Source: a virus. From it: a DNA stretch of 64,000 nucleotides. The stretch lies in the IMG/VR virus record IMGVR_UViG_3300037189_022865, positions 1 to 64,000 of that record. One strand, given 5' to 3'. Of this stretch, positions 747-58,092 are shown in pieces (within the stretch, counting starts at the first letter, position 1; the number at the start of each line of letters is the position of its first letter). A program made the translations under genes and the position numbers. The notes beneath the pieces were generated by a model. It was not told where the DNA came from, searched no databases, and saw only the letters and a program-made list of their open reading frames with translations.

Positions 747-3167
747 CTATTTGGATGATTTTCTAGCTTTTATTTTAAGGTCTTTCTCTTTTAGGTCTGA
801 TTCTTTTTCAAATTTCTTTTCAGCTAAATCAAGTTCTCTCTCACGTAGATTTTGATCCGAAATAAATTTCTGTATCTCGAGTGGATCAGGAATACCGTTA
901 TTATCTATATCAATATCCTTTTGGAATTTAAATACTTCTATCTGAGCTAAACGTTCTTTATGTTCAAAGAGCCTGTCTTGCATCATTATATCAAACTGTT
1001 GTTGAGCTTGTTGCTGCTGTTGGGCTGCTTCTATTTGCTGCTGTTGAGATTGTTGTTCCCGCTTAAAGGTTTCTTCTTCAGACTGTCTGATAGCCGCTTT
1101 AAGTTCGGCAGAAGAATTCGCTTCGTAAAGAGTAATAAGATCAGAGAATGTAGCGCGATTTGTATTAAGTAGGCCATCAGATATACTTTTAAGAGCTGAG
1201 AACATTTCGTATTCTTTGCCAGAGTCTGTAAGGAAAACACCTAGGTCGCAATTAGAAACATCTTCTGGAGAAAGTTCAAGTGTAGAAAGAGACATATCAT
1301 CTAACACGTACTGCTTAATAATCGACTTACCTTTCCAAACGTGCTGAGCAACATGGATAAGAGCAGTTAATGCTTTTTCCCACATCTTGGCATGGCTTTG
1401 GAAGTATATCTCAGTAATAAGAGCTGACATTTGTATATTACTCTGAGCATTTGATACAGCTTCAGTTGGAGTAGTTTGTCCTTCTCTTTGTCTAGATACA
1501 CCGGCTACTTCAGAGATCTGGTTATCAAGAGCTGCAAGTATATTAATGTAGTTCATTATATACTGCATATTCGACATATCTGTTTCTGAAGCTATCTTAC
1601 CTCTTTGAGCTTGTCCTGGTTCATCCGCATTTGCAAGAGGATTGAATATATCAAGGTTCATTTCCTTAAGATAATAGAGTGTTTTCTCTATACCAATTTT
1701 TGGATCAACCATAGATACATCAAAGTGGAATACCTTACCTTGATCTTGAGCAATGAGCTTTTTAAGCTTATGCATTACTATAAAGTAAAGATACTGAAAA
1801 GGTTTCATTCTATCCATCAAGGAAACAGACTCAGCATTTGTAGCATTATAAACTATGCCATGATATCCTAAGGAAACATCATAAGGATCGTCCATAGATC
1901 TAAACTGAACTTCTTTAGGGCCAACCATAGTGTAAATATCGTGACCTATTTTAGTAGCGGTCCATACCTCTGGAATATAATCCCAATTAAGTTTATATAC
2001 GGAATCTTCTAATTTCCAAATGTAGTACTCAGTCTTTACACCATATCTACCACGAACTATTTCTTTGGTAAACTCAGTGGGGATTTCAAAGTCCTCAGAA
2101 ACAATAGTAGTTTCTTCTTCACCATACTCATTAAACATAGTAAGAAATCCTACTTTTCTTTGGGATACCCATTCAACGTGTGATACACGCACGTCCGTGT
2201 GCGAGCTTTTTCCATAAGATCCTTGGGTAGTTGTATAAGTATCGTGATAGACTGGATCATAAGGAAGATTACCATACTTGGCGTTTTGCTCCATAGAAAA
2301 TTCTCTAAGTGCATTTGTATCACCAAAAGCAGTATCTATCTTCTCAATATCTTCTTGAGATAAATACTTTCCATAACGATCTAGTACCTCTGCTTGCGTC
2401 ATAAATGTAGTATAACCAGCGTAAAGAGATTTTTGAATCCACTTTGTTTCTCCACTCTTATGGTAGAAAAATCCTAGTGGATTAATAACTTCAATATGTG
2501 GTTCATCTCCATTAGTACCTACATAAACTACTTCTTCTCCAGATATAAGGGCATGCTTAAAAGCATCGGTCTTAATATCTTTTATATCCATTTTACGATA
2601 AAGATACTGAAGAATATTTTGAGCAAGTATTTCTCTCCTTTCACGATAAGAATACCTCATATATTTATCAAGATCTTTTGGATTAATGATATGCTCTTGA
2701 TGAACTTCTAAGAGCTCTGGGGAATAAATGTCAGAGAGAGAAGAGATTGTTTGTTTTATTACAGAATCAATATAATTACGAAGCATTGCATCTCTTTGGG
2801 AGAGCTTTGAACGAACTCCTTCTGCGTTTACTAATATTGTCCTAAAGTTAAAGGGCCTTTTAGATTCATCAGAAAGAAGTATTTGTATTTTATTATAAGT
2901 CTTATTGTAGGGTTGTATAGCGTCTTTAAATTGACCTACATCAAGTCCTAATGGGTTACACTCTCTTTCAAAATCAAACTGGTTTAGCTGATTATTGTAA
3001 AGTTGGTAATTTGATAATTTTCTTTGGTAGGAAGAGTTATACTTATTCACAACTCCTTCATCTTGAGGAGAGTATGACAGTATAGAATCTACCACATCCT
3101 TTGCCCACTTAAAGTTACTAGAAGCTTTACGTGAATAAGGAAGGCGTTGTTTTGGGAAGTTGTACAT
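747..3167 (-). CDS. Portal protein (crAss-like)
   Basis: 806 aa, begins FPKQRLP..K, has a C-terminal Q-rich coil and DIDNNGIPD; directly downstream of TerL; no in-frame TGA. Confidence 0.85.
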   Translation of the reverse strand: MYNFPKQRLPYSRKASSNFKWAKDVVDSILSYSPQDEGVVNKYNSSYQRKLSNYQLYNNQLNQFDFERECNPLGLDVGQFKDAIQPYNKTYNKIQILLSDESKRPFNFRTILVNAEGVRSKLSQRDAMLRNYIDSVIKQTISSLSDIYSPELLEVHQEHIINPKDLDKYMRYSYRERREILAQNILQYLYRKMDIKDIKTDAFKHALISGEEVVYVGTNGDEPHIEVINPLGFFYHKSGETKWIQKSLYAGYTTFMTQAEVLDRYGKYLSQEDIEKIDTAFGDTNALREFSMEQNAKYGNLPYDPVYHDTYTTTQGSYGKSSHTDVRVSHVEWVSQRKVGFLTMFNEYGEEETTIVSEDFEIPTEFTKEIVRGRYGVKTEYYIWKLEDSVYKLNWDYIPEVWTATKIGHDIYTMVGPKEVQFRSMDDPYDVSLGYHGIVYNATNAESVSLMDRMKPFQYLYFIVMHKLKKLIAQDQGKVFHFDVSMVDPKIGIEKTLYYLKEMNLDIFNPLANADEPGQAQRGKIASETDMSNMQYIMNYINILAALDNQISEVAGVSRQREGQTTPTEAVSNAQSNIQMSALITEIYFQSHAKMWEKALTALIHVAQHVWKGKSIIKQYVLDDMSLSTLELSPEDVSNCDLGVFLTDSGKEYEMFSALKSISDGLLNTNRATFSDLITLYEANSSAELKAAIRQSEEETFKREQQSQQQQIEAAQQQQQAQQQFDIMMQDRLFEHKERLAQIEVFKFQKDIDIDNNGIPDPLEIQKFISDQNLRERELDLAEKKFEKESDLKEKDLKIKARKSSK

Positions 3168-5367
3168 TGAATAGTCTGGTGTTGTTTACAAATAACCTAT
3201 CAAAGTCTTTCTCAAATTGAGAAAGCTCCTTATCGGTTATGGATTTTTTGCGACTAAGATTGGATATTTCTTCTAGACCTAAAACACATCCTATTAACGA
3301 AGATACCCTATCAAAGTTGCCATCGAGGTTATAAGAGATTAATTCTTGTAATAATCCTATATCGGGTATTACATCTAAATTGCGTCTATTATCTCCTCTT
3401 TCTTCTAAGAGGAAAGAACGAACATATTGAAGTGCTTCTCATTTAACTTTATCGTTTGATAGGGGGTAACCATAAATAATCTGGGGCCCTGTATCATAAG
3501 AAGCTTTTTTATTAAAAATAGTAACTGGTTGTCTAGCCAAAAGATCTAGACGGCGTATTTTATCAAAATAATCTTTTACGTTACCTACGTTATTCTCAAA
3601 GTATATTTTAGCATTACCATAAAACAAGGAGAGTTTGTATAACGTCTCATTAACTTGATTTTTACCTAAGTAAGGTCTACCTATATATGTAGCAACTATT
3701 TCTGAATATCCAACAGTGGAAGGATACTTGTTAGTCTTCATAACATAGACGGCAGCTAAAGATCCACCAGTTGAAGTATCATCTTTATAAGGGTCACAAC
3801 CTATTATATAAGCTCCTTCTGGAACATGATCATCTACTAGTTTTGGGAATTCGTATATCATAACCGCTCCTTCTACATCATCTCCTTCGTAAGGAAATCT
3901 TGTTATAGCAGTTAGTTTAGTATTTATTTCATAACTAACTCCATTATAAACTTTAGCGGCGGGATCAAAAAACAGAGTCACTTTATTAGAGTAATCCTCC
4001 ATCTTTTGAGATTGCACTTCTGAAAGACGTCTTCTAAGTTCTGCTGTTGGGAATATATTAGCAGTCTTGGTTAAGAACATTTCTGAAGGAACTATTGGAC
4101 GATATTGAAGCTCTTTATTTAAAGCTTCGGAACCACCTGAATCTCCAGCTTTTTGTTTTCTAACCTGAAGAAGGGCTTTTTTAGCTGCCTCTTCATTTGT
4201 AACTCAGTTCTCATCTTTATACTCATTAAGAACTTGGTAAGCTGGTAGAAAGTATCCTATTTGACCCCTATGCTCCCATATATCTTCAAACGTTAAGATA
4301 TCATATCTGTTAGGTTCGTAAAACATTTCAGAAGCATCAATAGTTCCTTTCTCCATATCACCACCAGTACCAATCATCATAAGCATACCTGTTTTCCTAA
4401 GACCGTTACGAAGGTTATCCACCGTATTTGTATAAACCTGTTTTAAGTTGGAGAACATACCTATCTCTTCTAATACTAAAAGAAGAGGTCGAGTACCTTG
4501 AGCTGCAAATGGGTTAGCAGAAAAAGACCTATGCTTAATAGATGACTTAGATCCCGCAATTATCCAAGCTCCATTCTCACGTTTTTTATACTCAGCAACT
4601 ATCTCTTTATTAACATCCCAAGATCCCCTGAATCTTTTAGAAAAAGGAGCTGGGTAGGTCCTGTCAAAAGTAGATATCTTACCGGGAAGCCAATCAAATG
4701 CATCCCTTGTCTTTTTAAGTAGATCTGCTGATTTATCTGACTTTTCAGCACCAACTAATATCTCAGCTGGGGAGGGATACTTTATACTTTCTTCATTATA
4801 ATAAGTAGCTCCATCAAAAAGATAGTTGTGTGCTATAAGTCCCGATACCTGATAAGACTTACCAGATTCTCGAGATCCAAGAAGCATAAAATTCTGTAGA
4901 TTATTCTCAAACAGAGGAGCACCTAAGGGATAATCATAGGTTTGGAATAAAGCCTTTCGCGCGGGAATGTAAGTTTTACGAGAACCTGTGGAAGACATAG
5001 TATTTGGATAATACTTTAATAAGGTATCATCATCTATATCTGTTAAAAGTATTCTATGAGAGGAGTATTCATCATCGTCTTTAAAACCAGAGAATCCACG
5101 GGCTTCGGTGTAATAATTAAAAAAGTTATATTCTACATCCCTGAGTCAAGGTCTACCAAAAGACTTTACAGATGAGTGAATAGATTTATTTAGCCTTATT
5201 GTATGGAAGTTTATATAATAGTAAAGGGCTGGGGGAACAAATGTCCCGCCAGCCCAGTAACCTTCGATACAACGCCGTTTCTGTTCGCGTCAAAATGTTT
5301 TATAATCTATTGATAGAGGATGATACTCAGGGACTTCTTTTATTATAAAGTCTCTGTTATTGAACAT
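3127..5367 (-). CDS. terL: Terminase large subunit, 746 aa, with 4 in-frame TGA read as Trp
   Basis: Track ORFs 3439-4080 and 4204-4998 share a frame and are joined by TGA at 5290, 5146, 4204 and 3439. Motifs: YKTF*REQKRRCIEGYW, Walker A GSRESGKS, Walker B LVLEEIG, nuclease IIGCDPY, C-terminal GNFDRVS. Confidence 0.92.
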
Positions 5368-6967
5368 AGTCTGGTGATGGTGGAGTATATGGGGGCGTCC
5401 TATCTACATTAACCATCGCAGTGTCAGAAAGAATTATCATATTAGCTGCAGAAACAGCATTCTTAACTGCTTGTGTAACTACCATAGTTGGATCAATAAT
5501 ACCAGCTGCTTTTAAATCTTTATACTCAAAGCTTTTAGCATCGAATCCAAAACTAGTGTCCGTGGACGCCTCTAATGTAGCAAGTACCATATCTGGGCTC
5601 TTACCCGCATTAAAAACTATACGTCTAAGTGGCTCTTTTATAGCATTAACGTATGCTTTTGTTATAGGATCATCAGTAGTTATCTTAGATGAAGCATAAA
5701 GAAGTGCAGTACCACCTCCGGGGAGATAACCTTCAACGATTGTTGCTGCAATAGCTTTAAGAGCATCTTCTACCCTATCTTTTTTCTCTTTTAATTCTGT
5801 TTCTGTAGCAGCCCCAACATTAATAATTGCTACTTTAGCTTTAAGATCCGCAAGTCTTTTCTGATACTGTTGTAAAAGATATGGATTATCAGAATCTTGG
5901 AGCATTTTAGAGTTTATTAATTGAACTCTTTGGTCAACCTTATCAGCGTTTTTATCTGGATTAATAAATACAGTCTTATCTTTAGAGATAACTACCTTTT
6001 CTGCAGACCCAAAATTAATAGGGGAAACATCAAGGGTTGCTCTAGAGGCATCTGTTGTTGTAAATATGGTAGAAGAGGTTATAGCCGCAAGATCTTGAAG
6101 CAGTTCCGCTCTATTTTCTCCATAAGAAGGAGCTTCTACAGCAACTACAGATATTCTTTGTTGTAACTTATTAATTATAAGGAGCTGTAAAGCTTGACCA
6201 TCAATAGCATCAGCAATAATAAGGAGCGGCTTTCTACGAGATGCTGCATACTCCAAAATTGGGATTACTTCATCTGTGTGTCTAAGCTTATTATCAGTAA
6301 TAAAAATAAGGGGGTTTTCTAAAACTGCTTCTCCTTTAGCGGAATCTGTAATAAAATAAGGTGAAGCATAACCTTTGGATATAGATACTCCAGGTACAGT
6401 CTCAAGATAAGTGTTACCTGTCTTAGATTCTCCCATAGACACTAAACCATCTGTACCAACATACTCATAAGCAGAAAGAATGAGGGCACCAATGTCAGAA
6501 TCATTATTAGCAGATATAGTAGCCACATCATAAATATCTTGTGGCTTAAGTTCTCCAGTAGATAACTTATTAAGCTGTACAATAGTCTGGTGTTTTAAAG
6601 TCTCAAAGACTCTTTTAATTTCTATGGGTTGATAACCAACAGAAATAAGTTTAAATGCCTCTTGTACTAAAGCCGAAGCAATAACAGTTGAGGTAGTAGT
6701 ACCATCTCCAGCAGTAGAAGCAGTTTTAGCAGCAGCTTGCTTAAGAATATCCACAGCTAAGTTCTCAACTGGATCTTCTAAAGCTATATGTTTAGCAACT
6801 GTTACACCATCTTTAGTTACAGTAGTTGCTCCATAGGGAGTTTCGATTATTACATTCTTACCCATTGGTCCTAATGTAGATCCAACAGCATTAGAAATTT
6901 TTTCTACACCTTTAAGTAATTTTTCTCTTGTTTCTTCTTTAAACGTAACTTGTTTAGTTGGCGTCAT
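5357..6967 (-). CDS. groEL: Chaperonin GroEL
   Basis: TLGPMGKNV, TKDGVTVAK, AGDGTTT, GGGTAL and GIIDP motifs. Confidence 0.97.
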   Translation of the reverse strand: MTPTKQVTFKEETREKLLKGVEKISNAVGSTLGPMGKNVIIETPYGATTVTKDGVTVAKHIALEDPVENLAVDILKQAAAKTASTAGDGTTTSTVIASALVQEAFKLISVGYQPIEIKRVFETLKHQTIVQLNKLSTGELKPQDIYDVATISANNDSDIGALILSAYEYVGTDGLVSMGESKTGNTYLETVPGVSISKGYASPYFITDSAKGEAVLENPLIFITDNKLRHTDEVIPILEYAASRRKPLLIIADAIDGQALQLLIINKLQQRISVVAVEAPSYGENRAELLQDLAAITSSTIFTTTDASRATLDVSPINFGSAEKVVISKDKTVFINPDKNADKVDQRVQLINSKMLQDSDNPYLLQQYQKRLADLKAKVAIINVGAATETELKEKKDRVEDALKAIAATIVEGYLPGGGTALLYASSKITTDDPITKAYVNAIKEPLRRIVFNAGKSPDMVLATLEASTDTSFGFDAKSFEYKDLKAAGIIDPTMVVTQAVKNAVSAANMIILSDTAMVNVDRTPPYTPPSPDYVQ

Positions 6968-7184
6968 TTTGTAAATCTTTTAATTTGTCCAAATTAAGGG
7001 GTGAATTTTTATACCAAGTATTAGGATGATGATTCTTAACGTGAGTAAGTAAGTTCATCTTTAAATTAGATGTCATAGAATCAACATAAGTATCCATTTT
7101 ATGGAATTCATCCTGTGGTATTGTTACAGAAAGCTCTTGCTCGTATGGCCAAAGCTCATATTTAATTGATACTTTGATCTTCAT
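6954..7184 (-). CDS. Hypothetical protein
   Basis: ORF in operon; ATG 7184 preferred because it avoids overlap with the upstream small ORF. Confidence 0.55.
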   Translation of the reverse strand: MKIKVSIKYELWPYEQELSVTIPQDEFHKMDTYVDSMTSNLKMNLLTHVKNHHPNTWYKNSPLNLDKLKDLQNDAN

Positions 7185-7191
7185 TTTGAGT

Positions 7192-7329
7192 TTAGTTAAC
7201 TCTATAGAGCCAATTTGCAATATCTGCGTCGTGCACAGCGTCTTTTTGTGTAACCATATTCATTCTGTACTCAGAAAGAAGATAATTACCAAAGTCTATG
7301 AGTTCAGTAAGTGTAAATTTATTTTCCAT
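7192..7329 (-). CDS. Small hypothetical protein, 45 aa (not in ORF track)
   Basis: MENKFTLTELIDFGNYLLSEYR...VHDADIANW; start overlaps the previous stop (TAATG). Confidence 0.6.
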   Translation of the reverse strand: MENKFTLTELIDFGNYLLSEYRMNMVTQKDAVHDADIANWLYRVN

Positions 7330-7628: not shown

Positions 7629-7643
7629 AAAATTAAGTTTTAG

Positions 7644-7736
7644 CGAGGGCTGAGGGAATCGAACCCCCGCACGCCTTTTGGAAGGGCGTGTTCAGCGATT
7701 TTGAAGATCGGTTAGTACCCAGCTACTGTAGCCCCC
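7644..7736 (-). tRNA. tRNA with UCA anticodon (opal suppressor candidate), type II long variable arm
   Basis: Acceptor GGGGGCT/AGCCCTC plus G73; D stem AGTA/TACT; anticodon arm CGAT-CTTCAAA-ATCG (anticodon 7702-7704); variable stem CACGCC/GGCGTG; T arm GGGGG-TTCGATT-CCCTC; CCA not encoded. Confidence 0.88.
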
Positions 7737-8830: not shown

Positions 8831-9328
8831 CTAAATTTCTCCTTTTTCAGAAGCAGATTCCTCTAAATCTCCATGAGTTTTAGTTTGACGTTCTTTAGCT
8901 AACCGCTCTAAAATAGATTCATACTGATCCCATAATTTGGGAGTATTTGCAACCATCTTATCTTTAGCTTCAAAGGTATCTAAAGAATAAGGTATAGAGG
9001 AAATAAACTCATCTCTTTCATGTAGCGTCTTTTCCCATCTCATAAGAGCCCTTTCTACTTTAGTAAGTAGATTATCTTCTACAAAAGAAAGAAGATCAGA
9101 GTAGGACTCCCATGAGAAGGAAGGATCAGAGATAAGGTAATCCTTATAAATAAGTTCTTGGCGTTCTTTAGGGGAAAGCTCAAAGAACTTAGAATCAGGG
9201 TGCGCGTATAAAAATATTGCTCATAAATGTTCAGAGGGTATTTCTAAAAAATCTTTTAATAGAACTGACAACTCAGGATTAGTAGAGAAAAAATCCTTAT
9301 GTATATCAAAACTATTTAGGAGCGTCAT
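8831..9328 (-). CDS. Hypothetical protein, 165 aa, 1 in-frame TGA (possible small terminase)
   Basis: ATG 9328; TGA at 9221-9223 in SEHL*AIFLYAHPDSKF; continues in frame into track ORF 8831-9043. TerS identity is positional inference only. Confidence 0.7.
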
Positions 9329-12612: not shown

Positions 12613-12641
12613 CAACATCTCTCACTCAAATCTCTGATAAA

Positions 12642-12956: not shown

Positions 12957-13108
12957 ACACTCATATATTTTCACCACGTCACTACCCCATTGTTCCCTAA
13001 AAAGTAATAATTAACCCACAACCAAGTGGGTTTTACATAAATATAGCGGTTTAAACCAAGCCGCTCTTTTTTTAACCAAACACCCGCTAGCCAAGCGGAC
13101 ATATAAAT

Positions 13109-13342: not shown

Positions 13343-13345
13343 ACA

Positions 13346-13370
13346 AGGGGGAAGCAATTCCCCCTCTTTT
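13346..13370 (+). terminator. Intrinsic terminator
   Basis: AGGGGGAA-GCAA-TTCCCCCT followed by CTTTT. Confidence 0.7.
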
Positions 13371-14973: not shown

Positions 14974-14984
14974 AGGAATGGCTC

Positions 14985-49279: not shown

Positions 49280-52200
49280 CTATTTAAGTGGGTAGATGCC
49301 ATAAAGAAAACTTGGGTCTTCATCATTACCAAGTATCTGTTCTATTTGTGATCTAGAAGAATAACCGGGTGTGAGAGTTAAAAATCCTCTAAGGCCCTTA
49401 GGCCAACCTTGTTTATCCACTTCTCCAGACATACCTTCAGTAAGAAGCGCCCAAGTAGATTTACCTATTTTGTTTGCTACCTCCAAAGATACTACTGGTT
49501 TATCTGTTGCATCAAGAATATCTTTTAACGAAAGGAATCGAGACATATCTGTTACAATTCTTGCAGCAGATTTTCCTAATGGAGTCTTTTCTTCTTCATC
49601 ATCAAATGCCCAAGAGTAAATGGCTAACATTGTTAACCACCATATAAGCGTGTTTATTAATGAAGACATAGCTCTAATTCTTGCATTTTTCAAAGTAGCT
49701 TCTCCAAGATCTCCTCCAGTCATGTAATCCATATGCTTTCCCTGAATAGCAGCAAACAAAGCAGCAAAGAATATCTTTATTTGTCCCTGAAGTATTTCGG
49801 AATGCCATTCATACATAGGCATACCATCTGGCTTCTTTCCAACTAAAACATATTTACCAATACTGCGATCTCTATACTTAGACCCGAATAAAACTTTAAC
49901 ATATTGGAATGCGTGTTTTTGAAATTGAGCTAAGAAGTCTCCCCATACAGAAGCTTCCATAGCGATTTTTTCATCTTTTCTGTAAGAGCCAGATACTCTT
50001 TCGTGAGTTCTTTTAAGAGCCTTTATCTCCATTGCCGTAAGCTCTTTAAGTTCGGTAGTTGTTCCGTCGGAGTTTTCTACTACGCCGCGAACACCCATGT
50101 TCCACCCACCTTTATCATCATGAGCATCCCAAAGGGATATTTTGTTTCCATCTTTATCTAATACTTTAGTTGATTTTAATAATCCAGCCAAATGCCAAAG
50201 GGATGAAAAATTTTCAAATAATGAATAAGCAGCATAAGCATTTTCTCCAAGACCTATTTTAGAGACAGCTTCCATTTTTTTAATATCCTCGTCGCTTATT
50301 ACGTAGTTATCTGGCAACCAATTAATCGCTTTAGCAATATTCCATAATTTAGATTCCTCTGGTTTTCCCATAATTGCCTTAGCAATATAATCATTAAAAA
50401 CTATTTTACCACCAACTAAATCTATTTGTCCTAGTTCTTCTACATCGACTCCATATATTTTAGACAGACCTTTTGTTACTATATTTTTAGTTGACTGGGA
50501 TATTGTTTGTAATGTTACATATATACCATTTCTTATTGGGGAAATAACTTTAAATCCAAGTGTTAAAAAAGATACAGAAGTTCTTAGCCAACGAACTATT
50601 TCGATTTCAGAGATTCTTACGTCGGTGCCTTCTTTTATACCTGTTACTTTTTCAGTTAACTTACCAGCTTTCCATCTTACTGCTCTGGTTAAAACTTTTT
50701 CAGTTTTTTGTCTTCCTAATATTTGAGTATATATTTCATCATCTAACCATTGAACTGTATTAGAATACCTAGCTTCTTCACCACTTTCCATAAGCTCTTC
50801 ATCTAAAGCATTACGAACGCCCCTAGCTAGATCATAAAGAGGGTCCATTTCTTGCTTAGTTTTCATGGACATCATGAACATTTTGAAAGCGATTTGGCCG
50901 TTAAAGCTGTGGTTTTCTGCATCTACTATACCAGGAGAATCTGTATGTTTAAAGTATCTAAATTGTATTCCCTCAGATCCTCTACCATATTTATCTTCAA
51001 AGAAACCATTTAAGCTTCTTTTAAATTCTTCTCCAACAGTGGTTTTAAGACCCATTAATCCTGCTCCATAACCAGAAGTTTTTATTTCTTCCTCTCTAAT
51101 TTCATTTATACTTTTAGGTATTCTAGGCATGAAATCTAGAGGCATTTCTTCTGGTAAACCTAAAGAACTGTATCTATAAATAGGTTGCCTAGTTACTTCA
51201 TCAAAACCAACTATTTCTTTAGCAAATTTATTATACTCCTCCTTCATTGTTTTATGAACGTAGTTTCTATAATCTTGCTCAGCTTTTGTCATTGGAACTT
51301 CTTTACCATTCTTCACATAAGTATTCTTTGTGTTAAGGTAGTAACCAGTTCCGCCTATCTCATCTGACTTTCTCCACATAAACGCGTAAAAATCTCTAGT
51401 ATCCATTTGTGTTTTAGAGGCAATAGCATTATGTGCGGCAACAACACCAGCAGCAAGAATTGGATTCCAAGTAGCCATAGAGGCGAAGTGAACCATTTCA
51501 AGTCCTTTCAAAGCTGCTTTATTCATTTTGTCGTTAGGACCAACCCTTTCATTCACTAGCTTTAAAAACAAATTATCATGGTTTTCTTCCAAATTTTTTG
51601 AAAAAATATTGAGCCTTTGTTTTGCTTCTAATAATACTTTATGTAAAACTTGTATTCTTGGGTTATCTACATCAGAAAAGTTTTTAATTTTCCAGAAAAA
51701 ACCTAAGTCTGGAGTTTTAGATTTAAGATCTATAGTGGGTTCTTTTTCTATCTCCAGTATTGCCTGTGAGTATTTTATACTTAAAGCTTTTTTTCTTGGG
51801 TCTCTTTCTACTTGTTCCTTAGAAGATCTTAAATAAAGATCTGACAATTTGTTTTTTAAATAAATAAGTTTTTCGTCTCTAGACAAATGAGATATTTCAG
51901 AATGTAAATCTATAAGTGATTGAGTTACTCCTTTGTAATTAGACAATTTAAACAATCCCTTTTTTTCCATTTCGTCATGGATTTTAGGGTGATTTGTTTT
52001 ATAATAATTTTGTATGGTAAAAAGATATGGTTCTAAGTCTAGTTCCATGGCCGTAGGATTACCCATAGCATCTATAACCAACAATTTAATTGATCTAAAT
52101 TTTAAATCTGGAAATTTTTCTTTAAGCATTACAGTTCTCAAAGCTTTTTCCAAATAAGCTCTGGATAATCTAGAGTCATTTATACCAAACTCTTCTCCAT

Positions 52201-54583
52201 ACTTTATCATTTGGTTGGTATTAGAATCTCTAGTTAACCAACCGGTTTTAAAATCTACAAAAGTAGCTTCCCCGTTTTGATGCACAAAAAGTCCGTCATA
52301 TGTTGTAGCAAGTTTATTACCATCCTTATCTACCATTAAATCAGAAACTATTACACCTTCTGAAGAAACTTTGTCTCTTAGTCCTGGGGGTAGAGTATTA
52401 TCCAAGTCTACTATAACTCCCGCAGCTTCAAAAATTTTATCTAAATTATTTTTTATTCTTTTAATGCTGGGATGAGACTCTAATGAAATAAAATCTGCCT
52501 TAGTTGCTTTGGCATACTTAATAGCGTTTTGCTTAGCTTCTTCTTTCTTTTGTGGGTTTTGTTCTAAAACATATTGAAAATAAGCGTGAATTAACTTACC
52601 TTTATTTTTAAACTCATTTAATCTGGCTTCAATAGTTCTATACACATCTTGAAAAGTCAACCTTTCACCTTGTATAGTTATTGTTTCTTTTATTTCATCT
52701 TCGTTTTTATCATAGATATTTACACCATTTCTAGCAAAAACTTTTTTCGCTTCATATTCAGCATCACTGTTAGAATAGCGTTTTTGCTTAGAAGAAAATT
52801 CTCCAACTTCCACATCCCCAACAAATGAAGTAATACGTTTAGCTTTTTCTCCAGTACTAATGTTTTCATAATATACAGAATTATCAAAAGAAGACCAGCC
52901 CTGTGCTTGTTTTTCTAACTCATTAATATAATCTATTTTAGGTTTCTTTTTAGCTCCAAGTCCATTGGCTACAGCTTCCTCGGCTTCATCTAATCTTTGA
53001 TAAGCAGTTCTTATTACGTTATCAGAAATAGTCATACCCCTTTCAAAAGTATTTAAAACTTCTATTAGCGTTGAGGTAGCTGTCAAGGAATTTTTTAATC
53101 CTAAAAAGTTTCTAATATAATTTAAAAAGTATTTTAGATATAGATTATATTTATTACTTATAGCTTGCTCTCCTAAATACTGAACAACACTCTCTTCTCT
53201 ATCCTCTATCCCATTGTTAACATAAGATTCTTTATAAAGAATTTCAAATGTTTGTGGAGAAGTTTGCATTAATGTAGATACAAATGGGTGATAATATTCG
53301 TGAAGCGGAGTATCTTCGGTCGCATAAGCAACGTTAATTACTACTATCTTTTCTTTACCCCTGTTTACGTATTTACCTCTAAATTTTTGGTTTGGGTCAT
53401 CTATTATTTGATACGGTATTGAAAATCTAGCAGAAAGCTCTTCTAATAAATTAGTTAACTTTGTACTAGCTTTTACCGGTAAGAAAACATTTTCATTTGT
53501 TTCTGGAAATAAAGTAATTGTTTTTGGTGTAGAAACATTATTTTTTACATTGTTTTTTACAAATTCTTTAAAACCTGCGATGTCTTTATTAGAGCCAAGT
53601 ATATGTATTTGATTTTTGTTTTTTACTATAAAGTTTCTACCTTCTTCAAATTCTTCTCCCCCAGGTCCAGCATCTTCAACTTGCGGCAATATAACAGAAT
53701 CTCCTCCTAAAGAGTTTATGTACTCTAAAGCTACATCACCTTCACCACGAGTTCCTCCAGCAAATAGTTTAGTGTCTCCTACAACAGGATTTTCCATATT
53801 AAGTATTACGGGAATATTTACACTAGCTCCTGTTTGAAAATATTTTTCTTTTTTAAGTAAACCTTCTAATTCTGGAAAACTTAAAACATACTCAACTAAC
53901 TTAACTACTTCTGAGTCAGTTAAATTAAACGATTTTTGTATATTATCTAGTAATTTATCTAAAAGAGTGTCGTCAGAACTTTTAGCAGCTACCCAAAGAT
54001 TTGCTAAATCAATTGAAGAAAAAATATTAGCGACGTTAAAATCCCCAAAAAAGTAACCAGCTTGATTACTTTTATTATCTGTTATTTTTGTGGCTTTGTT
54101 TTTATCAAAATCTTGTGTTTTATACCAGTCCCCCAAAGTGCCATGGTACACCACATCCTGCATTTTACTTTGTGGAAAAATAGTATTTAGATATTGAGAG
54201 TACTGTTCTTTAGTTCCTACAGAAGCTAACTCCGGTGTTGTTTTAAATACATAATCTACACCTTCTTTTTTTTCTTGAGTAGCCATCATAGGACTTTCTA
54301 CAATTACACTATCTCCTTCTAACCTAACGTTTAAACCATCAAATCTAGAATAAAAAATTCTAGCCATTAGTTCTTCTGAAAAAGTTGAACCCCCTAAAAA
54401 ATCTGCATATTTAGTTCTAAAGAATACTGGGTTTCTTCGTATTGCAGTTAATATAGCATTGTAGACGGGTTCGTTAAACGAAGGAGTTACTGCTTCAGTA
54501 TTATACAATACCAAAGCAGCTTCTTCTCCGTGCATTTCTACAAGCCTTCTCCACTCTTCTGAGTTTTTATTTGGACAGACCAT
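49280..54583 (-). CDS. Giant virion/ejection (polyvalent) protein with ART-like, zincin and PD-(D/E)xK-like modules
   Basis: ATG 54583 (TAATG overlap); VVYHGT..GYFF..NP, TPLHEYYHP, YDGL..VDFKTG; C-terminal hydrophobic helices. Confidence 0.75.
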   Translation of the reverse strand: MVCPNKNSEEWRRLVEMHGEEAALVLYNTEAVTPSFNEPVYNAILTAIRRNPVFFRTKYADFLGGSTFSEELMARIFYSRFDGLNVRLEGDSVIVESPMMATQEKKEGVDYVFKTTPELASVGTKEQYSQYLNTIFPQSKMQDVVYHGTLGDWYKTQDFDKNKATKITDNKSNQAGYFFGDFNVANIFSSIDLANLWVAAKSSDDTLLDKLLDNIQKSFNLTDSEVVKLVEYVLSFPELEGLLKKEKYFQTGASVNIPVILNMENPVVGDTKLFAGGTRGEGDVALEYINSLGGDSVILPQVEDAGPGGEEFEEGRNFIVKNKNQIHILGSNKDIAGFKEFVKNNVKNNVSTPKTITLFPETNENVFLPVKASTKLTNLLEELSARFSIPYQIIDDPNQKFRGKYVNRGKEKIVVINVAYATEDTPLHEYYHPFVSTLMQTSPQTFEILYKESYVNNGIEDREESVVQYLGEQAISNKYNLYLKYFLNYIRNFLGLKNSLTATSTLIEVLNTFERGMTISDNVIRTAYQRLDEAEEAVANGLGAKKKPKIDYINELEKQAQGWSSFDNSVYYENISTGEKAKRITSFVGDVEVGEFSSKQKRYSNSDAEYEAKKVFARNGVNIYDKNEDEIKETITIQGERLTFQDVYRTIEARLNEFKNKGKLIHAYFQYVLEQNPQKKEEAKQNAIKYAKATKADFISLESHPSIKRIKNNLDKIFEAAGVIVDLDNTLPPGLRDKVSSEGVIVSDLMVDKDGNKLATTYDGLFVHQNGEATFVDFKTGWLTRDSNTNQMIKYGEEFGINDSRLSRAYLEKALRTVMLKEKFPDLKFRSIKLLVIDAMGNPTAMELDLEPYLFTIQNYYKTNHPKIHDEMEKKGLFKLSNYKGVTQSLIDLHSEISHLSRDEKLIYLKNKLSDLYLRSSKEQVERDPRKKALSIKYSQAILEIEKEPTIDLKSKTPDLGFFWKIKNFSDVDNPRIQVLHKVLLEAKQRLNIFSKNLEENHDNLFLKLVNERVGPNDKMNKAALKGLEMVHFASMATWNPILAAGVVAAHNAIASKTQMDTRDFYAFMWRKSDEIGGTGYYLNTKNTYVKNGKEVPMTKAEQDYRNYVHKTMKEEYNKFAKEIVGFDEVTRQPIYRYSSLGLPEEMPLDFMPRIPKSINEIREEEIKTSGYGAGLMGLKTTVGEEFKRSLNGFFEDKYGRGSEGIQFRYFKHTDSPGIVDAENHSFNGQIAFKMFMMSMKTKQEMDPLYDLARGVRNALDEELMESGEEARYSNTVQWLDDEIYTQILGRQKTEKVLTRAVRWKAGKLTEKVTGIKEGTDVRISEIEIVRWLRTSVSFLTLGFKVISPIRNGIYVTLQTISQSTKNIVTKGLSKIYGVDVEELGQIDLVGGKIVFNDYIAKAIMGKPEESKLWNIAKAINWLPDNYVISDEDIKKMEAVSKIGLGENAYAAYSLFENFSSLWHLAGLLKSTKVLDKDGNKISLWDAHDDKGGWNMGVRGVVENSDGTTTELKELTAMEIKALKRTHERVSGSYRKDEKIAMEASVWGDFLAQFQKHAFQYVKVLFGSKYRDRSIGKYVLVGKKPDGMPMYEWHSEILQGQIKIFFAALFAAIQGKHMDYMTGGDLGEATLKNARIRAMSSLINTLIWWLTMLAIYSWAFDDEEEKTPLGKSAARIVTDMSRFLSLKDILDATDKPVVSLEVANKIGKSTWALLTEGMSGEVDKQGWPKGLRGFLTLTPGYSSRSQIEQILGNDEDPSFLYGIYPLK

Positions 54584-57500
54584 TAGCACTTATTTTTTTG
54601 ATTATAGACTTCTATAAAGTCTGCTGTTTTCATTCCTTTTTCTAATTCTTGTAAAAAGGTTTTGTCAAAAGTAAACATAGTTAAATTAGTTCCAGTATTA
54701 GCCGATACAAAAGCATACAGCCCATTACCAAAATAAAGTATATCTCCCTCTTTCTTTTTAGCAAGCGGTCCTTGTGCAGGGGTATAAACTAAACCACTTG
54801 CATCTTTAGTTAAACTAATATTTCCAACCATTTCAACGTCTAATTCGTTTTCTTTAATTGCTATAGTTAGCTCTGGCGATTTTTGTTGAACATTAGTTGG
54901 CGGAAGTATTCTGTCTATATAATTCAATTTATTATAAAATAAATCTACAAGACCTCTATTTAATATTTTATACCGTCTAACCGAATCAAAAACATCTTTA
55001 GTTATAACTATTGTTGCTCCATCTTTTACTTTTTCATTTAATATCACGGCAGTTTCATCTAGTATATCTTGTTGTTGCTGCTCAGTTAAATCTTTTGGTA
55101 TGTTAAAAAATGGTAACTTTATAGAACGTTCTTCTTTAGGAGAAATAACAATAGTAGATGCTTCTAAATCTTTACTTGTTCTTTCTTTTCTAAAATATTC
55201 TGATACCGTATCAACTACAACGGTAGCGTTAACATCGGTGTTAAGAAACTTTTTAAAACCTTTTCTAACCCTTTCAATTAATTGAGTCGAGTACATAGGT
55301 CTTTGTTCAGTTGCTCCTAAAATATAAGTAGTTACTCCCTCAGATTCTTGTATATCTTTAACGTAATAAGCAGTGGCTGTTGTTGGATCTACAGAATATA
55401 AATCAATTGCTAACACACGATCAAATTTTTGTAAAGATAGTTTTTTCTTTTTTAATCTTATTTTACCCCCTTGAATAATGCTACTATTAACAAGTTTATA
55501 ATCTCCAAGATTAAACAAGGCTTTTAAATCAAACGATTTATCTAAATCGAAAAGAGAAAAATTATAAGCACTAGGAGTTTTATCCCCTATTTTTACATAG
55601 TAGGACATACCACTTCCAGGAGTATCTACAAGCATAAACACACCTTGATCATAATAACTTATAAATCTAGGGGTAGATGCGTTCGGCGCTACCGGGAAAA
55701 CTAAATCATAGTGTACAGTAGAAACAGTATCTTCTTCTTGAGATGATTGGTAGTTTGTACTTCCAGCATAAATAGTTTTTTTGATTTTAGTTTGCGGCAC
55801 TGGAACTTTAACTGTAACTGGTTTTGCTTTTGGAAATCTACCAATAAGATCTGGTCTGGCCCTAACTAACTGATACAAAAACTTGTCTTTTATACTCAAT
55901 AGGTTTGCGTCAGTAGTGTAAGAATCTTTTGGAATAACAGATTCCATGCGAGCAGCAAAAGCTTTAGCAAAAGCAAATCCCCATTCGGGAGGAAATATTA
56001 ATGAAAAACCGGTTTTTTCATAGTACATACTATCGGTCATCAAAGAGTATTTAAATAAATCTAATGCCAATTGCTTGCCACTAATAAATTTTCCATCTCC
56101 AATTGGAACTTCTTCTGTATTATACAACTTTTCAAATCCGTCCCTAATTCTTTCTATTACTTCATCATCATCTAATTTGTCAGCTACTATCATAGCTCTA
56201 TTAACGCCATTATAACTACTAAATTCTAGTGAGTTTACAAATGAGTTGTCATCTAATTCATTGTGTACTTTAAATAAAGTGTTTACAAATTCTCTTTGCC
56301 AAGCTCTAGCATTTTCAGCGTTTCCTTCAACATAATTTGAAACTTCGACATCCCCTATTTTAAATTTAAGATTGGAAGTTAAAAACTTAATTAATTCTTT
56401 CGAAACTTCTCCAGCCTTGTCCATAGAGTCATACGCACTAAATAAGTTTGCTTCTTTAGTTATATTTTCTACAAATCTTTGAACTGTTGGTGAATATATA
56501 TTAAATATTTGCTCCAAAACATTTCTAAAAGTTATTGCTGTTCTGTAAAGCGCCTTAACGTGTGGCAAATTTAATATGGCGACATTAGAAAAAGCCGAAG
56601 AATTAGAAGGCTCAACTTTTCTGGATGTTGTTTTTCTTATTACGCGGTTAACATAGTTAGCTCTAATTTGATTGTTAGCTGTGTACATCATAGAGCTGAA
56701 TTCTTTAACAAACTCTAAAGCTTCTTCTTTTTCTATACCAGTGATTCTGCCAACTATTCTTTCTGCAATGCTCTTGATTTCTCCTCTAGTTCCAGTGGCC
56801 TCCCCTTTAAAGTGAGCTAAACTTTCTATGTTATCTATAAGCGAAGTTATCTGCCACATTTTATTCGGCAAATAACGAAGGCCTTTGTATATCATTGATT
56901 GTTTAAATGTCTCTTGACCAAGAGGTATCATTGCTCGCATAGTTTCTAAAAGAAACAAATTGGCAATAAGAGTTTCAGCTTCTGACGCTTGTCCAGTGTA
57001 AACTTTTTCTAGAAGTTCATCAGTTAAACCTTTAGTACTTTTACCTTGTTGGCCGTACAAACCAAATAATATACTATTAAGAGGTAAAAAGCTTTGTCCA
57101 GATATTTTTGTTTCGGAGATTTGTACGTTATACTCATCTTTTAATATTCTAGCCACTTCAGGCCACAAGTCTTCATTACTTGCGTAAGTTTTATGCAAGT
57201 CTTTACTTATCTCCTCAATACTTTCTTGTGTCCATCTTTTTCCTTCACTGATCTTAGCTATTACTGGAGATTTAAACATCAAAGATACTGAATTAAGAGG
57301 TACCCCACTAGCAAGAAGCGTCAAAAATATATTAGCATTTGTGTTTGTAATGCCCAGCAAGTGAAGCTTTTGCATTTTAACGTTGTCAATAGCAAGGTTA
57401 ATTAATGTATCTATGTCTTCGAACACATTAGTACCATCAAAAGCTATGCGTCTAAATGCATTTAAAGCTTTTCCATTTCATTTTATAAAAGAAGAAGAAA

Positions 57501-58092
57501 CAACTTCATTAGCTCCCTTACCAGAAAAGATTTTCATATCCGAAAATTTTGGATTCTCCCTTCCTGTTATTCTTAAGTGAGGCATCTTTTCGATGAGCCT
57601 TTCGATAGTTGGAGCATCATTTTCTTGCATTAAAGTTTTTATCTCCGCACTATTAACAGACATTACAGTTTTAGTTCTGGTGTCTAATATTTCTGTTGGA
57701 GGAGTAGCGTCAAATATATAACCAAACACTTTAGAGAAGTTAGCTACTATACCAGTAAGAGCAATACCGGAATAAGTGTTGTATCTTATTTTTTCTTGTG
57801 TGGAGTAATCGGTAAGATTTCCTTTTGGATTAAGTGCTTCGTCAGCTTGTTTTTTAGTTACATAACCACTTACTTCCTTACCATTTTTCTTTATTTCTAA
57901 CCGAGTTCACAACTCCATTATAGACTCGGTTTTATTTATAAAATCATACCTCTCAACTATCACAGAAGCTAGTGGAGAAGGGGATTCTACTCCTTCAAGT
58001 AAAACCCCCATTCCTTTTTCCAATAACATTTGCTTAAGTTCTTCTTTGGTATATTCTACATCATTTATTATATATTTACAAGTTACTGGCAT
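54583..58092 (-). CDS. Virion RNA polymerase C-terminal part, 1169 aa, 2 in-frame TGA
   Basis: Track ORFs 57907-58092, 57478-57729 and 54583-57426 share a frame and are joined by TGA 57907 and 57478; GIALTGIVAN and LAIDNVK motifs follow on from the catalytic part. Confidence 0.75.

Follow-up and report, generated by a model that had tools for sequence, protein, structure and literature searches.

Comparisons with homologs indicate that a Crassvirales-like freshwater phage uses TGA in two ways, i.e., as a Trp codon within genes for replication, recombination, and packaging, as well as within some virion genes, and as a true stop in its accessory block and at the ends of three genes of the replication block. 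The sense TGAs reach their highest frequency in the replication block; abundant virion proteins have few of them, and the accessory block has none. We somewhat favor a joint reading in which this two-use TGA, decoded by a phage tRNA with the anticodon UCA, would gate the timing or dosage of replication and packaging enzymes. The window (i.e., the whole 64,000-nt stretch analyzed) is part of a 90,596-bp source record (90.6 kb), and the named phages nearest to this one infect Bacteroidota. The original prediction, which proposed gene-selective TGA recoding as a translational gate, was upheld as an observation and in part as an interpretation (i.e., for Trp as the residue, block selectivity, coverage of the replisome, and 5' placement).

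Sense TGA codons and the residues opposite them

Curation left 30 in-frame TGAs in 14 genes of the window and 36 in 18 genes of the whole record (raw tallies, 31 in 15 and 37 in 19, respectively; one TGA was removed with its ORF as an ATGA overlap at 37185), in line with the approximately 15 genes originally expected to be complete only with read-through. Sequencing error, raised at the outset as a possible source of the TGAs, is ruled out because those of the terminase gene (TerL) recur in near-identical IMG/VR contigs from other samples (four of four in five of the six contigs; three in the sixth). The Trp-like character first seen in the TGA contexts was also recovered when opposite residues were tabulated. 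Among relatives of <90% identity, which share ancestry so that the counts are not independent, virion-block TGAs stood opposite W 81 times, TGA 28 times, and G 30 times (the last from one TerL column; n = 199), while replication-block TGAs stood opposite TGA 37 times, W 22 times, and Y 10 times (n = 95). In the reverse view, the phage's own TGG codons were opposite TGA in 37 of 980 cases in the virion block, 36 of 305 in the replication block, and 1 of 111 in the accessory block.

TerL (746 aa; 3127..5367, minus strand; 35% identity to phi14:2 TerL by tblastn, E = 5e-115) carries TGA at codons 26, 74, 388, and 643 (window positions 5290, 5146, 4204, and 3439), i.e., at four of its nine Trp codons. 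In an alignment of 34 sequences, codon 26 was W in 19 and TGA in 15, and codon 643 was W in 25, TGA in 8, and Q in 1. On the same strand, a 185-aa ORF (8831..9388) has TGA at codon 56, opposite W 11 times and TGA 6 times in relatives of <90% identity, and at codon 14, opposite L 4 times and F twice. A weakly supported 112-aa ORF (6954..7292, minus strand) has a TGA at codon 11 that is retained in four contigs at ≥90% identity; distant homologs of it were not found in the alignments of relatives. The 1169-aa virion-block protein (54583..58092, minus strand) has TGAs at codons 62 (W 3, TGA 1, and I 1 in relatives) and 205; our searches gave it no family match and no phage match, and its first assignment as a second part of the RNA polymerase was not confirmed.

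The remaining sense TGAs of the window lie on the plus strand, and those in the polymerase, primase, and helicase genes agree with the claim that recoding extends to the replisome. The family A DNA polymerase (PolA; 626 aa; 31510..33390; phrog_17, E = 3.7e-89, residues 26 to 624) has TGAs at codons 256 (opposite W 5 and L 2) and 30 (TGA 3, K 3, and Y 1). The SF2 helicase (368 aa; 35117..36223; phrog_16; ResIII and Helicase_C domains) has one at codon 40 (TGA 3 and W 1), and its homologs in relatives G006 and G004 also contain in-frame TGAs. In the primase (322 aa; 43411..44379; phrog_12622), TGAs occupy codons 10 and 282, the former being TGA in all seven relatives of <90% identity. The N-terminal part of a split Sak4-like ATPase (40933..41253; phrog_2872) has a TGA at codon 41 (W 3 and TGA 2 at <90% identity; W 2 and TGA 4 at ≥90%), and the GIY-YIG homing-endonuclease ORF that interrupts this gene (41357..42100; PF01541, phrog_314) has TGAs at codons 79 and 104 that are kept only in near-identical contigs. 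All four TGA sites of the PD-(D/E)XK exonuclease (337 aa; 46503..47516; phrog_412; codons 63, 104, 120, and 318) are W or TGA in relatives. The DUF1064/resolvase-like gene (155 aa; 46142..46609; PF06356, E = 6e-4, below the cutoff) contains six TGAs (codons 12, 69, 85, 97, 118, and 125), more than the four or five originally counted, and no TGG; codons 69, 85, and 97 are W or TGA in relatives, and the tail past codon 118 is conserved in G002, G003, G004, and G006. Two further ORFs have a single TGA each, one of 192 aa (42485..43063; codon 39, opposite TGA 4, W 1, and S 1) and one of 205 aa (47547..48164; codon 48, opposite TGA 2 and one gap at <90% identity). A putative membrane-anchored lysin (201 aa; 30675..31280), tentatively labeled M15-like from a motif picked out by eye, has its TGA at codon 108, before the region that looks catalytic, and the site is Y in five relatives of <90% identity. 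Pfam and PHROG profile searches gave no match for this protein, leaving the proposed M15 hydrolase identity unconfirmed.

TGA stops and the decoder tRNA

The hypervariable accessory block (12100..30302, plus strand) comprises 30 code 11 ORFs with 50 TGG codons and no supported sense TGA, as anticipated by the original prediction; the term "early" for this block (12.1 to 30.3 kb) is a label and not a measured timing. Ten of the ORFs end in TGA (at 13905, 14971, 15274, 15739, 16155, 21004, 23255, 25065, 25598, and 29191), and the expected terminators and ATGA overlaps were found. A terminator (14985-15006) lies 12 nt past the TGA at 14971, G-rich hairpins lie 3' of those at 15274 and 21004, and ATGA overlaps occur at 16154, 25064, and 29190. 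Within the replication block, three further TGAs are true stops on the plus strand. The TGA at 43412 ends ORF 43112-43414, whose homologs terminate at the same place, and overlaps the primase ATG (43411). That at 44735..44737 ends ORF 44360-44737 in an ATGA overlap with a UDG-family gene (44734-45393), and the UDG domain and homologs start at ATG 44734. That at 46143..46145 ends ORF 45387-46145 inside the recoded block, and the G003 and G006 homologs end 0 to 2 codons from it. None of the 29 virion-block genes ends in TGA. We found no sequence context by which sense and stop TGAs can be told apart (A occupies position +4 in 19 of 37 of the former and 8 of 13 of the latter).

The genome has a single tRNA gene (7643..7736, minus strand; 94 nt; ARAGORN), with the anticodon UCA and a long extra arm, and its product is presumed to be a UGA suppressor. 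The extra-arm loop contains UCCAAA, i.e., a Trp-type CCA anticodon context. Homologs with a long arm (L008/G008, L009/G007, and L035) show compensatory stem changes around the same loop motif, and in three relatives the same role falls to a tRNA(UCA) of the ordinary short-arm type. Relative G004 has no detectable tRNA(UCA), although its replication genes contain TGA. A domain search of the genome found no release factor (RF-1) and no TrpRS. Suppression of UGA by phage tRNA(UCA)s in competition with RF2 has experimental precedent, as described in PMC12636597.

Distribution of sense TGAs and its explanations

In the phage's own genome, the TGA/TGG ratio was 21/52 in the replication block and 15/132 in the virion block (odds ratio [OR], 3.6; P = 8e-4), i.e., TGA accounted for 21 of 73 and 15 of 147 Trp codons, respectively. 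The skew recurred in three of four distant relatives (G002, 18/41 versus 5/95; G003, 20/43 versus 9/92; G004, 10/22 versus 0/62) and was missing in G006 (10/45 versus 21/67). Selectivity by gene block thus stood, and the clean division into stop and sense genes did not: with 15 sense TGAs among the virion-block genes and three real stops of this kind inside the replication block, the genome has no clean code boundary. Decoding is probably leaky and not a clean code switch. Approximately 16 of the 27 replication-block ORFs, including that of a DnaB-like helicase, lack TGA. Among the genes first described as using only TGG, the portal protein (747..3167, minus strand; phrog_6547, E = 3.9e-106; 8 TGG) and the 1769-aa virion-block protein (49280..54589, minus strand; 23 TGG) have no TGA, as does a 1372-aa protein (10 TGG). 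GroEL (5357-6967) proved to have no Trp codon of either kind. The ORF of >1941 aa is the 3' part (58083..64000, minus strand) of a gene that spans 4286 aa and comprises the virion RNA polymerase (tblastn match, E = 7e-12, to the catalytic RNAP subunit of phi14:2, gp66); this gene has 19 TGG codons and one TGA, at codon 236, beyond the window.

The predicted N-terminal bias was also borne out. The median relative position was 0.31 for TGA (n = 36) and 0.60 for TGG (n = 184; P = 6e-4), TGA was the first Trp codon in 12 of 17 genes (expected, 6.8), and clade-wide medians were 0.40 for 105 TGA columns and 0.55 for 329 W-only columns (P = 0.003). In the alignments, TGA positions are conserved across relatives beyond synonymous-site decay: the OR for positional conservation was 4.8 for TGA/TGG (P = 1.4e-6) versus 1.16 to 1.38 for A/G-ending Lys, Glu, and Gln codons, and a within-gene shuffle, which did not hold position along the gene, gave 16.8 ± 3.2 expected co-occurrences against 25 observed (P = 0.007).

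These conserved positions, the single UCA tRNA, and the lack of RF and TrpRS genes are consistent with a gate. Host TrpRS would charge the tRNA with Trp through its CCA loop, and the tRNA would decode the sense TGAs with host RF2 as competitor. Accessory genes would be translated by the unmodified host system, and full-length polymerase, primase, helicase, exonuclease, resolvase, lysin, and terminase would appear only after the suppressor tRNA had built up, with early TGA placement making failed read-through cheap. Counting against such a gate, the tRNA gene lies within a minus-strand block, downstream of the TGA-bearing gene 8831-9388; the TGA-free replication ORFs, the missing skew in G006, the failure to find a distinguishing sequence context, and the G004 genome without a detectable tRNA(UCA) weigh in the same direction. 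Drift under cost, which we consider possible though rather unlikely, would also produce this skew and this 5' bias, without a gate. A suppressor would have been acquired, AT-biased mutation would have turned TGG into TGA under leaky suppression, and selection against TGA would scale with expression level and with the peptide wasted on termination. TGA would then survive close to gene starts and in enzymes of low copy number and be purged from abundant virion proteins, and the accessory block would lack it because of recent, mosaic imports in the standard code. That block does have a higher G+C content (0.39 to 0.45 versus 0.31 to 0.38) and is only 66 to 95% identical to contigs that are otherwise 99% identical from 27.6 kb on. 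Drift also fits the many TGA-free replication ORFs, the minority status of TGA everywhere (36 of 220 Trp codons in the two recoded blocks), and the contrast between TerL and the TGA-free portal, 1769-aa, and 1372-aa proteins. It fits less well with the scarcity of TGA in giant virion proteins present in few copies, among them the RNAP (of the 20 Trp codons in the 4286-aa gene, 1 is TGA), and with TGA sites that stay conserved while the third positions of Lys, Glu, and Gln codons have become almost random. The latter suggests that particular TGAs may have been kept and not merely tolerated, although position-dependent tolerance could mimic this conservation.

An unlikely further explanation, compatible with the gate and not exclusive of it, makes the suppressor tRNA mainly an anti-host weapon, as proposed for crAss-like phages in PMC7886860 and PMC12386605. 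Read-through of host TGA stops would impair host and defense proteins, the phage tmRNA would handle stalled ribosomes, and the sense TGAs would be a by-product. The tmRNA gene does lie approximately 0.8 kb from the tRNA gene (side by side with it in G006), and virion-block genes avoid TGA stops; however, the phage's own 13 TGA stops (10 of them accessory) would be read through also, and the 5' bias, replication skew, and positional conservation would be left unexplained. That the host simply reads every TGA as Trp (code 4), the accessory stops being illusory and the proteins longer, is very improbable. Extensions reach TAA or TAG within 2 to 22 codons in 8 of the 10 accessory cases, but read-through at 14971 would cross a terminator hairpin and T-run, and the pattern of change past the TGAs at 15739 and 16155 is that of noncoding sequence or of another frame (past 16155, substitutions relative to G005 are synonymous when read in the frame of the downstream gene). 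A Pfam glucosaminidase domain ends three codons before the TGA at 21004 and is followed by a separate MoxR-like ORF, W makes up 0 of the 17 residues opposite TGA at 11.9 to 30.4 kb in relatives of <90% identity, and a host of this kind would fit neither the Bacteroidota hosts of named relatives nor a phage carrying its own tRNA(UCA). In the recoded blocks, moreover, TGA supplies just 16% of the Trp codons, against the 80 to 90% given for code 4 bacteria in the Mgcod preprint. Equally hard to credit is a reading of TGA as Ser or Sec, suggested by the Ser/Sec-type body of the tRNA, with G73 and a long extra arm. The top-scoring Rfam family is tRNA-Sec, and the fold of the L009 homolog has a D stem of 6 bp and a D loop of 4 nt; yet the score (38.9 bits) is under the gathering threshold of 47, and the tRNA has 7/5 acceptor/T stems. 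In the recoded blocks, Ser accounts for just 1 of 199 and 4 of 95 residues facing TGA and Cys for none, TGA and TGG swap in invariant Trp columns of TerL, the CCA motif occurs in all four long-arm loops, and the short-arm versions do the same job.

Comparison with published recoding

Block-wise recoding is already in print. According to the Borges preprint, recoding of replication genes is variable and these genes are mostly recoded in Lak phages; two further sources describe it in the PolB of zeta crAss phages (PMC7886860) and in a Lera phage helicase (PMC12386605). The skew of the present phage, in which TGA is richer in replication than in virion genes, is the opposite of the published crAss pattern. 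The phage thus appears to use a known trick, TGA as Trp, with an unusual preference for replication and packaging genes.

Genome organization and relatives

The phage is classed as crAss-like (Crassvirales-type) on the basis of matches to its TerL, portal, and giant virion RNA polymerase. TerL (3127-5367, minus strand) shares 35% identity with that of Cellulophaga phage phi14:2 over 97% of its length, the portal matches phrog_6547 (E = 3.9e-106), and part of a 4286-aa gene matches gp66, the virion RNA polymerase of phi14:2 (E = 7e-12). The hosts of the closest named relatives are Cellulophaga, Flavobacterium, and Bacteroides; that of our phage is probably a freshwater Bacteroidota. A megablast search of positions 3000-11000 against GenBank phages returned no match, and freshwater metagenomes of at least 10 further studies hold near-identical DNA; one RNA run is also listed, with a small share of the phage. 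IMG/VR includes more than 40 contigs of the clade. The whole record spans 90,596 bp (estimated completeness, 92%), the window being its first 64 kb.

The genes are arranged in three blocks. The virion block (1-11.4 kb, then 49.3-90.6 kb; minus strand) carries portal, TerL, GroEL/GroES, and ThyX genes, a tRNA, and a tmRNA, together with giant virion proteins and tail and virion proteins; GroEL (Cpn60, 208.8 bits; 5357-6967, minus strand) lies beside TerL, and the GroES-like protein is encoded at 9661-10140 (minus strand). The accessory block (12.1-30.3 kb; plus strand) contains short ORFs, two glucosaminidase-domain proteins, a MoxR-like/VWA pair, and an AAA ATPase. The replication block (30.7-49.2 kb; plus strand) encodes a putative lysin, PolA, an SF2 helicase, a DnaB-like helicase, a Sak4-like gene split by a GIY-YIG ORF, primase, UDG, a DUF1064-like resolvase, and an exonuclease. 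An HNH endonuclease ORF (36388-37035, plus strand) is located between the SF2 helicase gene and a 384-aa ORF, and the stop of a short ORF (37102-37188, plus strand) overlaps the start of the gene behind it as ATGA. Two gene assignments of the original prediction found no counterpart in our searches: 54583-58092, called part 2 of an RNA polymerase, has no family or phage match, and 30675-31280, called an M15 hydrolase, has no family match.

Two uses of TGA

We tiled the coding strands with ORFs under code 4 (i.e., TGA as Trp), masked TGA as X, and compared the products with 59 related sources (eight whole IMG/VR records and loci found by TerL, DnaB, PolA, and primase). For the residue tallies, each source was counted once per codon, and only alignments below 90% identity were used. 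Opposite sense TGAs of the virion block (n = 199), the relatives have W 81 times, G 30, TGA 28, N 10, Y 10, L 9, and other residues 31 times, with all 30 G falling in one variable column (TerL codon 388); opposite TGG of our genome (n = 980), they have W 589 times and TGA 37 times. The replication-block tally opposite TGA (n = 95), which retains a few codons later excluded from the sense set, comprises TGA 37, W 22, Y 10, K 5, F 5, L 4, S 4, and others 8, and that opposite TGG (n = 305) includes W 188 and TGA 36. Homologs therefore show the predicted preference for Trp or TGA at these sites (109/199 in the virion block and 59/95 in the replication block), and the single TerL column supplies 30 of the 90 remaining virion-block residues. 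In a 34-sequence TerL alignment, codon 26 is Trp in 19 sequences and TGA in 15, codon 643 is Trp in 25, TGA in 8, and Gln in 1, and some relatives also have TGA at other invariant Trp positions.

The in-frame TGAs interrupt otherwise intact conserved phage genes (TerL, PolA, primase, helicase, exonuclease, and others). They are not the sequencing errors that had been considered earlier: all four TerL TGAs recur in five of six contigs from other samples (98-99% identity), and three of them recur in the sixth. Decoding as Ser is contradicted by the rarity of Ser opposite TGA (1/199 and 4/95). Selenocysteine would be expected to bring Cys into these columns, where none occurs in the recoded blocks, and the best Rfam family of the phage tRNA, tRNA-Sec, scores 38.9 bits, below the threshold of 47. 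Since the W/TGA tallies, the TerL columns, the scarcity of Ser, the absence of Cys, and the retention of TGAs in other samples' contigs agree, the reading of sense TGA as Trp is well supported by sequence comparison.

A curated set of sense TGAs was obtained by excluding terminal stops, codons 4, 19, and 23 of ORF 44629-45393 (upstream of its true start at 44734), and the TGA at 37186 (an ATGA overlap), and by adding the DUF1064-like gene, which is absent from the code 4 tiling. This set comprises 36 TGAs in 18 genes genome-wide, 30 of them in 14 genes within the window, and TGA is thus a minority Trp codon in the recoded blocks (36/220). In the DUF1064-like gene (46142-46609, plus strand), which overlaps the exonuclease start by 107 nt, all six Trp-type codons are TGA, and the tail beyond the fifth is conserved in four distant relatives. 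The halves of the Sak4-like ATPase (40933-41253 and 42115-42465, plus strand) are separated by a GIY-YIG ORF (41357-42100) that itself needs two TGA read-throughs; this insertion is probably a group I intron.

Because code 11 ORFs lack in-frame TGA by construction, we sought independent evidence for TGA as a stop. The accessory block holds 30 code 11 ORFs (5,076 codons; 50 TGG) ending in TAA (15), TGA (10), or TAG (5). A stem-loop and T-run (14985-15006) lie 12 nt beyond the TGA at 14971, and terminator-like sites in this block number 49, compared with 16.7 +/- 4.3 in shuffles. G-rich hairpins lie 3' of the TGAs at 15274 and 21004, the latter hairpin being conserved in two relatives. ATGA overlaps occur at 16154, 25064, and 29190; beyond 16155, the differences from the close relative G005 are synonymous in the frame of the downstream gene and nonsynonymous in the upstream frame. 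A glucosaminidase Pfam domain extends to residue 263 of 266, and a separate MoxR-like ORF begins 39 nt on. No TGA in code 4-extended accessory ORFs faces Trp in relatives (0 of 17 facing residues), and the relatives have TGA opposite TGG of our genome in 1 of 111 cases. The terminator, the hairpins, the ATGA overlaps, and the lack of facing Trp bear out the claim that TGA is a stop at 12100-30300. Three TGA-bearing code 4 ORFs (16774-17070, 18987-19352, and 25973-26179) were rejected as genes; they would encode implausible proteins, shift frame between relatives, and look noncoding.

The accessory block is a mosaic with a higher G+C content (0.39-0.45): from 11500 to 27600 it shows 66-95% identity to contigs whose identity beyond 27.6 kb is 99%, and its homology blocks start at or just after TGA stops. 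A search for related loci with the glucosaminidase ORF 20206-21003, which lies in this hypervariable block, retrieved no relative. The word "early" for this block is a label rather than a measurement; it draws on the position by the ~11.5 kb divergent region, on gene size, and on an analogy with phi14:2-type phages that we presume to hold. Bacteroidetes-type promoter patterns were uninformative (5 matches; 2.6 +/- 1.6 expected), sigma-70-like sites occurred at chance level (46; 41 +/- 5.5 expected), and direct repeats in 10.9-31.3 kb yielded no common regulatory motif. The block also contains a twister-P3 ribozyme (16463-16526, plus strand; Rfam 48.1 bits, threshold 39.9) and, 2.1 kb downstream, a 19-nt look-alike of its 5' end (18553-18571).

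Three real TGA stops fall within the replication block. The one at 43412 overlaps the primase start as ATGA, and homologs of the upstream ORF end there; that at 44735 overlaps the UDG start, likewise as ATGA; and at 46143, the homologs in G003 and G006 (two distant related phage records) end within 0-2 codons. One codon therefore has two outcomes inside one block, and the local bases around sense and stop TGAs showed no usable difference. In total, TGA remains a stop in 13 genes, with 13 supported stops. A change from code 11 to code 4 raises the coverage by ORFs of at least 100 aa only modestly (0.76 to 0.93 in the replication block; 0.70 to 0.75 in the accessory block). Plain genome-wide code 4 is contradicted by the 13 stops and by the small share of TGA among Trp codons. 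For annotation, it matters that the genes of this phage come out correctly under neither code 11 nor code 4 alone.

Placement of sense TGA codons

Sense TGA is concentrated in the replication block (21 TGA/52 TGG, i.e., 21/73 Trp codons) relative to the virion block (15/132, i.e., 15/147; odds ratio [OR] = 3.6, p = 8e-4) and the accessory block (0/50; p = 5e-6). For the relatives, skew was estimated from X and W counts in alignments to our own ORF set, a comparison that includes a few doubtful ORFs and genomes of shared ancestry. Three of four distant relatives exhibit the skew between replication and virion blocks (G002, 18/41 versus 5/95, p = 3e-5; G003, 20/43 versus 9/92, p = 3e-4; G004, 10/22 versus 0/62, p = 7e-6), and G006 does not (10/45 versus 21/67). 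The close relatives G001 and G005 have the same skew (OR, about 5); in a third close contig it is not significant (OR = 2.1, p = 0.13). The original prediction, in which TGA is sense in replication, packaging, and lysis genes, is supported by the skew and qualified by the 15 sense TGAs (132 TGG) of the virion block and by the three replication-block stops. Its further statement that portal, GroEL, and the 1768-aa and >1941-aa virion proteins use only TGG stands for the portal and the 1768-aa protein; GroEL has neither Trp codon, and the >1941-aa ORF contains a single TGA, located outside the window.

Within genes, sense TGAs lie toward the 5' end, as had been suspected from the sequence. Their median relative position is 0.31 (n = 36), compared with 0.61 for the TGG codons of these genes (n = 78, p = 9e-4) and 0.60 for all TGG codons of the two blocks (n = 184, p = 6e-4), and 25 of the 36 are in the first half of the gene. 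TGA is the first Trp codon in 12 of 17 TGA-bearing tiled genes (6.8 expected), a count that excludes the DUF1064-like gene, which has no TGG. The bias extends across the clade: 105 TGA-holding columns have a median position of 0.40, versus 0.55 for 329 W-only columns (p = 0.003), and the share of TGA drops along genes, from 0.33 in their first tenth to 0.13-0.19 in their final two fifths. When five relatives were tested one by one, all had the bias, with medians of 0.32-0.36 for TGA and 0.56-0.62 for TGG (p from 0.06 to 4e-4).

Positional conservation was assessed in alignments below 80% identity to G002, G003, G004, and G006, in which the third positions (A or G) of Lys, Glu, and Gln codons are nearly randomized (OR = 1.16, 1.31, and 1.38, respectively). 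For TGA versus TGG, the OR is 4.8: the probability that a relative has TGA is 0.45 given TGA in our genome and 0.15 given TGG (p = 1.4e-6). Shuffling of labels within genes gave 16.8 +/- 3.2 co-occurrences, versus 25 observed (p = 0.007), a result that would fit both the keeping of particular TGAs and a tolerance of TGA in the 5' region and does not separate the two. The conserved sites are mostly 5' (TerL codon 26, PolA 30, helicase 40, primase 10, and codon 22 of a 233-aa gene).

Putative suppressor tRNA and comparison with known systems

The one tRNA of the genome (7643-7736, minus strand; 94 nt; anticodon UCA) has 7/5 acceptor/T stems, G73, and a long extra arm. Homologs are present in seven related contig groups, and the long arm is kept in three further sequence-divergent groups with compensatory stem changes (copies at L008:216-309, L009:5513-5610, and L035:3368-3467, all related loci). 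The L009 and L035 tRNAs have a clean five-arm cloverleaf as their minimum free energy fold. In a MAFFT alignment of the four long-arm tRNAs, the columns of the extra arm are out of register, and RNAalifold missed the arm for this reason; single-sequence folds recover it. The extra-arm loop contains UCCAAA in all four versions and is a 7-nt GUCCAAA loop in L009 and L035; the true anticodon loop is CUUCAAA. We take GUCCAAA to be an anticodon-like loop presenting CCA, the Trp anticodon, from its presumed likeness to tRNA-Trp, and this motif suggests that the extra arm is a second, Trp-anticodon-like arm. Similarity searches with the tRNA found no match in E. coli genomes and chance-level matches (E = 7) in phages, seven of which fall on annotated tRNAs, all in tRNA-Trp anticodon arms, which is no more than a hint of ancestry.

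An ordinary short-arm tRNA(UCA) occurs instead in the related locus L013 and in G003 and G006, the G003 copy having been missed by ARAGORN and detected by Rfam. No UCA tRNA was found in G002 (ARAGORN) or G004 (ARAGORN and Rfam) despite their TGAs, both records being incomplete. G004 has tRNA-like genes with long extra arms and anticodons UCU and UUU (L102:18424-18502, minus strand, and G004 73762-73846). Our genome has no detectable release factor (PF00472) or TrpRS/TyrRS (PF00579) domain. A tmRNA of about 247 nt with a 30-aa tag (8560-8808, minus strand; Rfam 62.9 bits) is located 0.8 kb from the tRNA and is overlapped at its 3' end by the thyX ORF (7895-8608); in G006, a tmRNA adjoins the tRNA(UCA).

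Our analyses demonstrate the dual use of TGA, its Trp sense, the block skew, the 5' bias, the positional conservation, and the conserved phage tRNA(UCA). The host TrpRS may charge this tRNA through the CCA-bearing arm, and the tRNA would compete with RF2; phage tRNA(UCA)s suppress UGA in E. coli extracts in an RF2-limited manner, according to the available portion of one report (PMC12636597). Accessory genes would be translated before the tRNA accumulates, and full-length replisome enzymes, lysin, and terminase would require it, an arrangement that would gate their timing or dosage. We tentatively propose, as a possible rather than a probable reading, that UGA is a conserved 5' checkpoint in the replisome, recombination, lysin, and terminase genes of this freshwater crAss-like clade and not a late-gene code switch, these enzymes being completed only after accumulation of a two-arm tRNA (UCA plus a TrpRS-recruiting CCA arm). 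UGA still stops accessory genes and some replication-block genes, so its meaning would be set by the tRNA level and not by context. The main alternative is leaky suppression with selection on its cost and no gate, which also predicts both the low TGA content of abundant proteins and the 5' bias but is weakened by the positional conservation of TGA.

Phage stop-codon recoding is usually interpreted as a means of restraining late (virion and lysis) proteins. A clade with recoding centered on replication enzymes would show the same device timing or dosing entry into DNA replication and packaging, a role supported by TGAs that lie early in genes at conserved positions. The phage also offers a natural test bed for how a single codon can serve as a stop and as a sense codon within the same infected cell and for the retention of Trp identity by an odd suppressor tRNA.

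As in code 4 of Mycoplasma/Spiroplasma, a tRNA(UCA) reads UGA as Trp; there, however, the code is genome-wide and UGA is the main Trp codon and never a stop, whereas here it is a minority codon and a stop in 13 genes. As far as the available portions of the Borges preprint (10.1101/2021.08.26.457843) extend, the gut phages described (Agate, Jade, Lak, and others) similarly combine a standard-code host, a suppressor tRNA, and recoded stops that hold back proteins, but their recoding is enriched in structural and lysis genes, and the Jade phage has a TrpRS and RF1, neither of which was found here. The same portions place the replication machinery of a crAss-like example in standard code, call replication recoding "variable" (mostly recoded in Lak), and hold no statement on the within-gene position of recoded codons; the entries listed by a literature search on recoding and N-terminal position likewise contain no mention of 5' placement.

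The closest named relative, phi14:2, is only distantly related. Judging from the accessible sections of the publications on TGA-to-Trp crAss-like phages (PMC7886860; 10.1101/2022.06.29.495998; PMC12386605), our phage shares with them a Crassvirales-type genome, a phage tRNA(UCA), in-frame TGAs aligned to Trp in TerL and other conserved genes, one block readable in standard code, and introns and homing endonucleases that are equally recoded. The published phages are from the gut and ours is from freshwater. In the sections seen, their recoding falls mostly in the late, virion part ("mostly, in late phage genes"; PMC7886860), and replication genes are among the unrecoded early genes (Mgcod preprint, Pfennig et al., 10.1101/2022.06.29.495998), with a recoded zeta-group PolB (PMC7886860) and a recoded Lera phage helicase (PMC12386605) also on record. 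Here, in contrast, the replication block has the highest TGA share, G004 has TGA in the replication block only, and the standard-code block is a hypervariable accessory block that truly uses TGA as a stop. The pattern is the reverse of the published crAss-like one, in which replication genes are free of recoding; a block readable in standard code is found in both. Block-wise phage stop-codon recoding with a suppressor tRNA is already published in kind, and what differs in this phage is the clade-wide preference for replication genes and the 5'-proximal, conserved placement of TGA.
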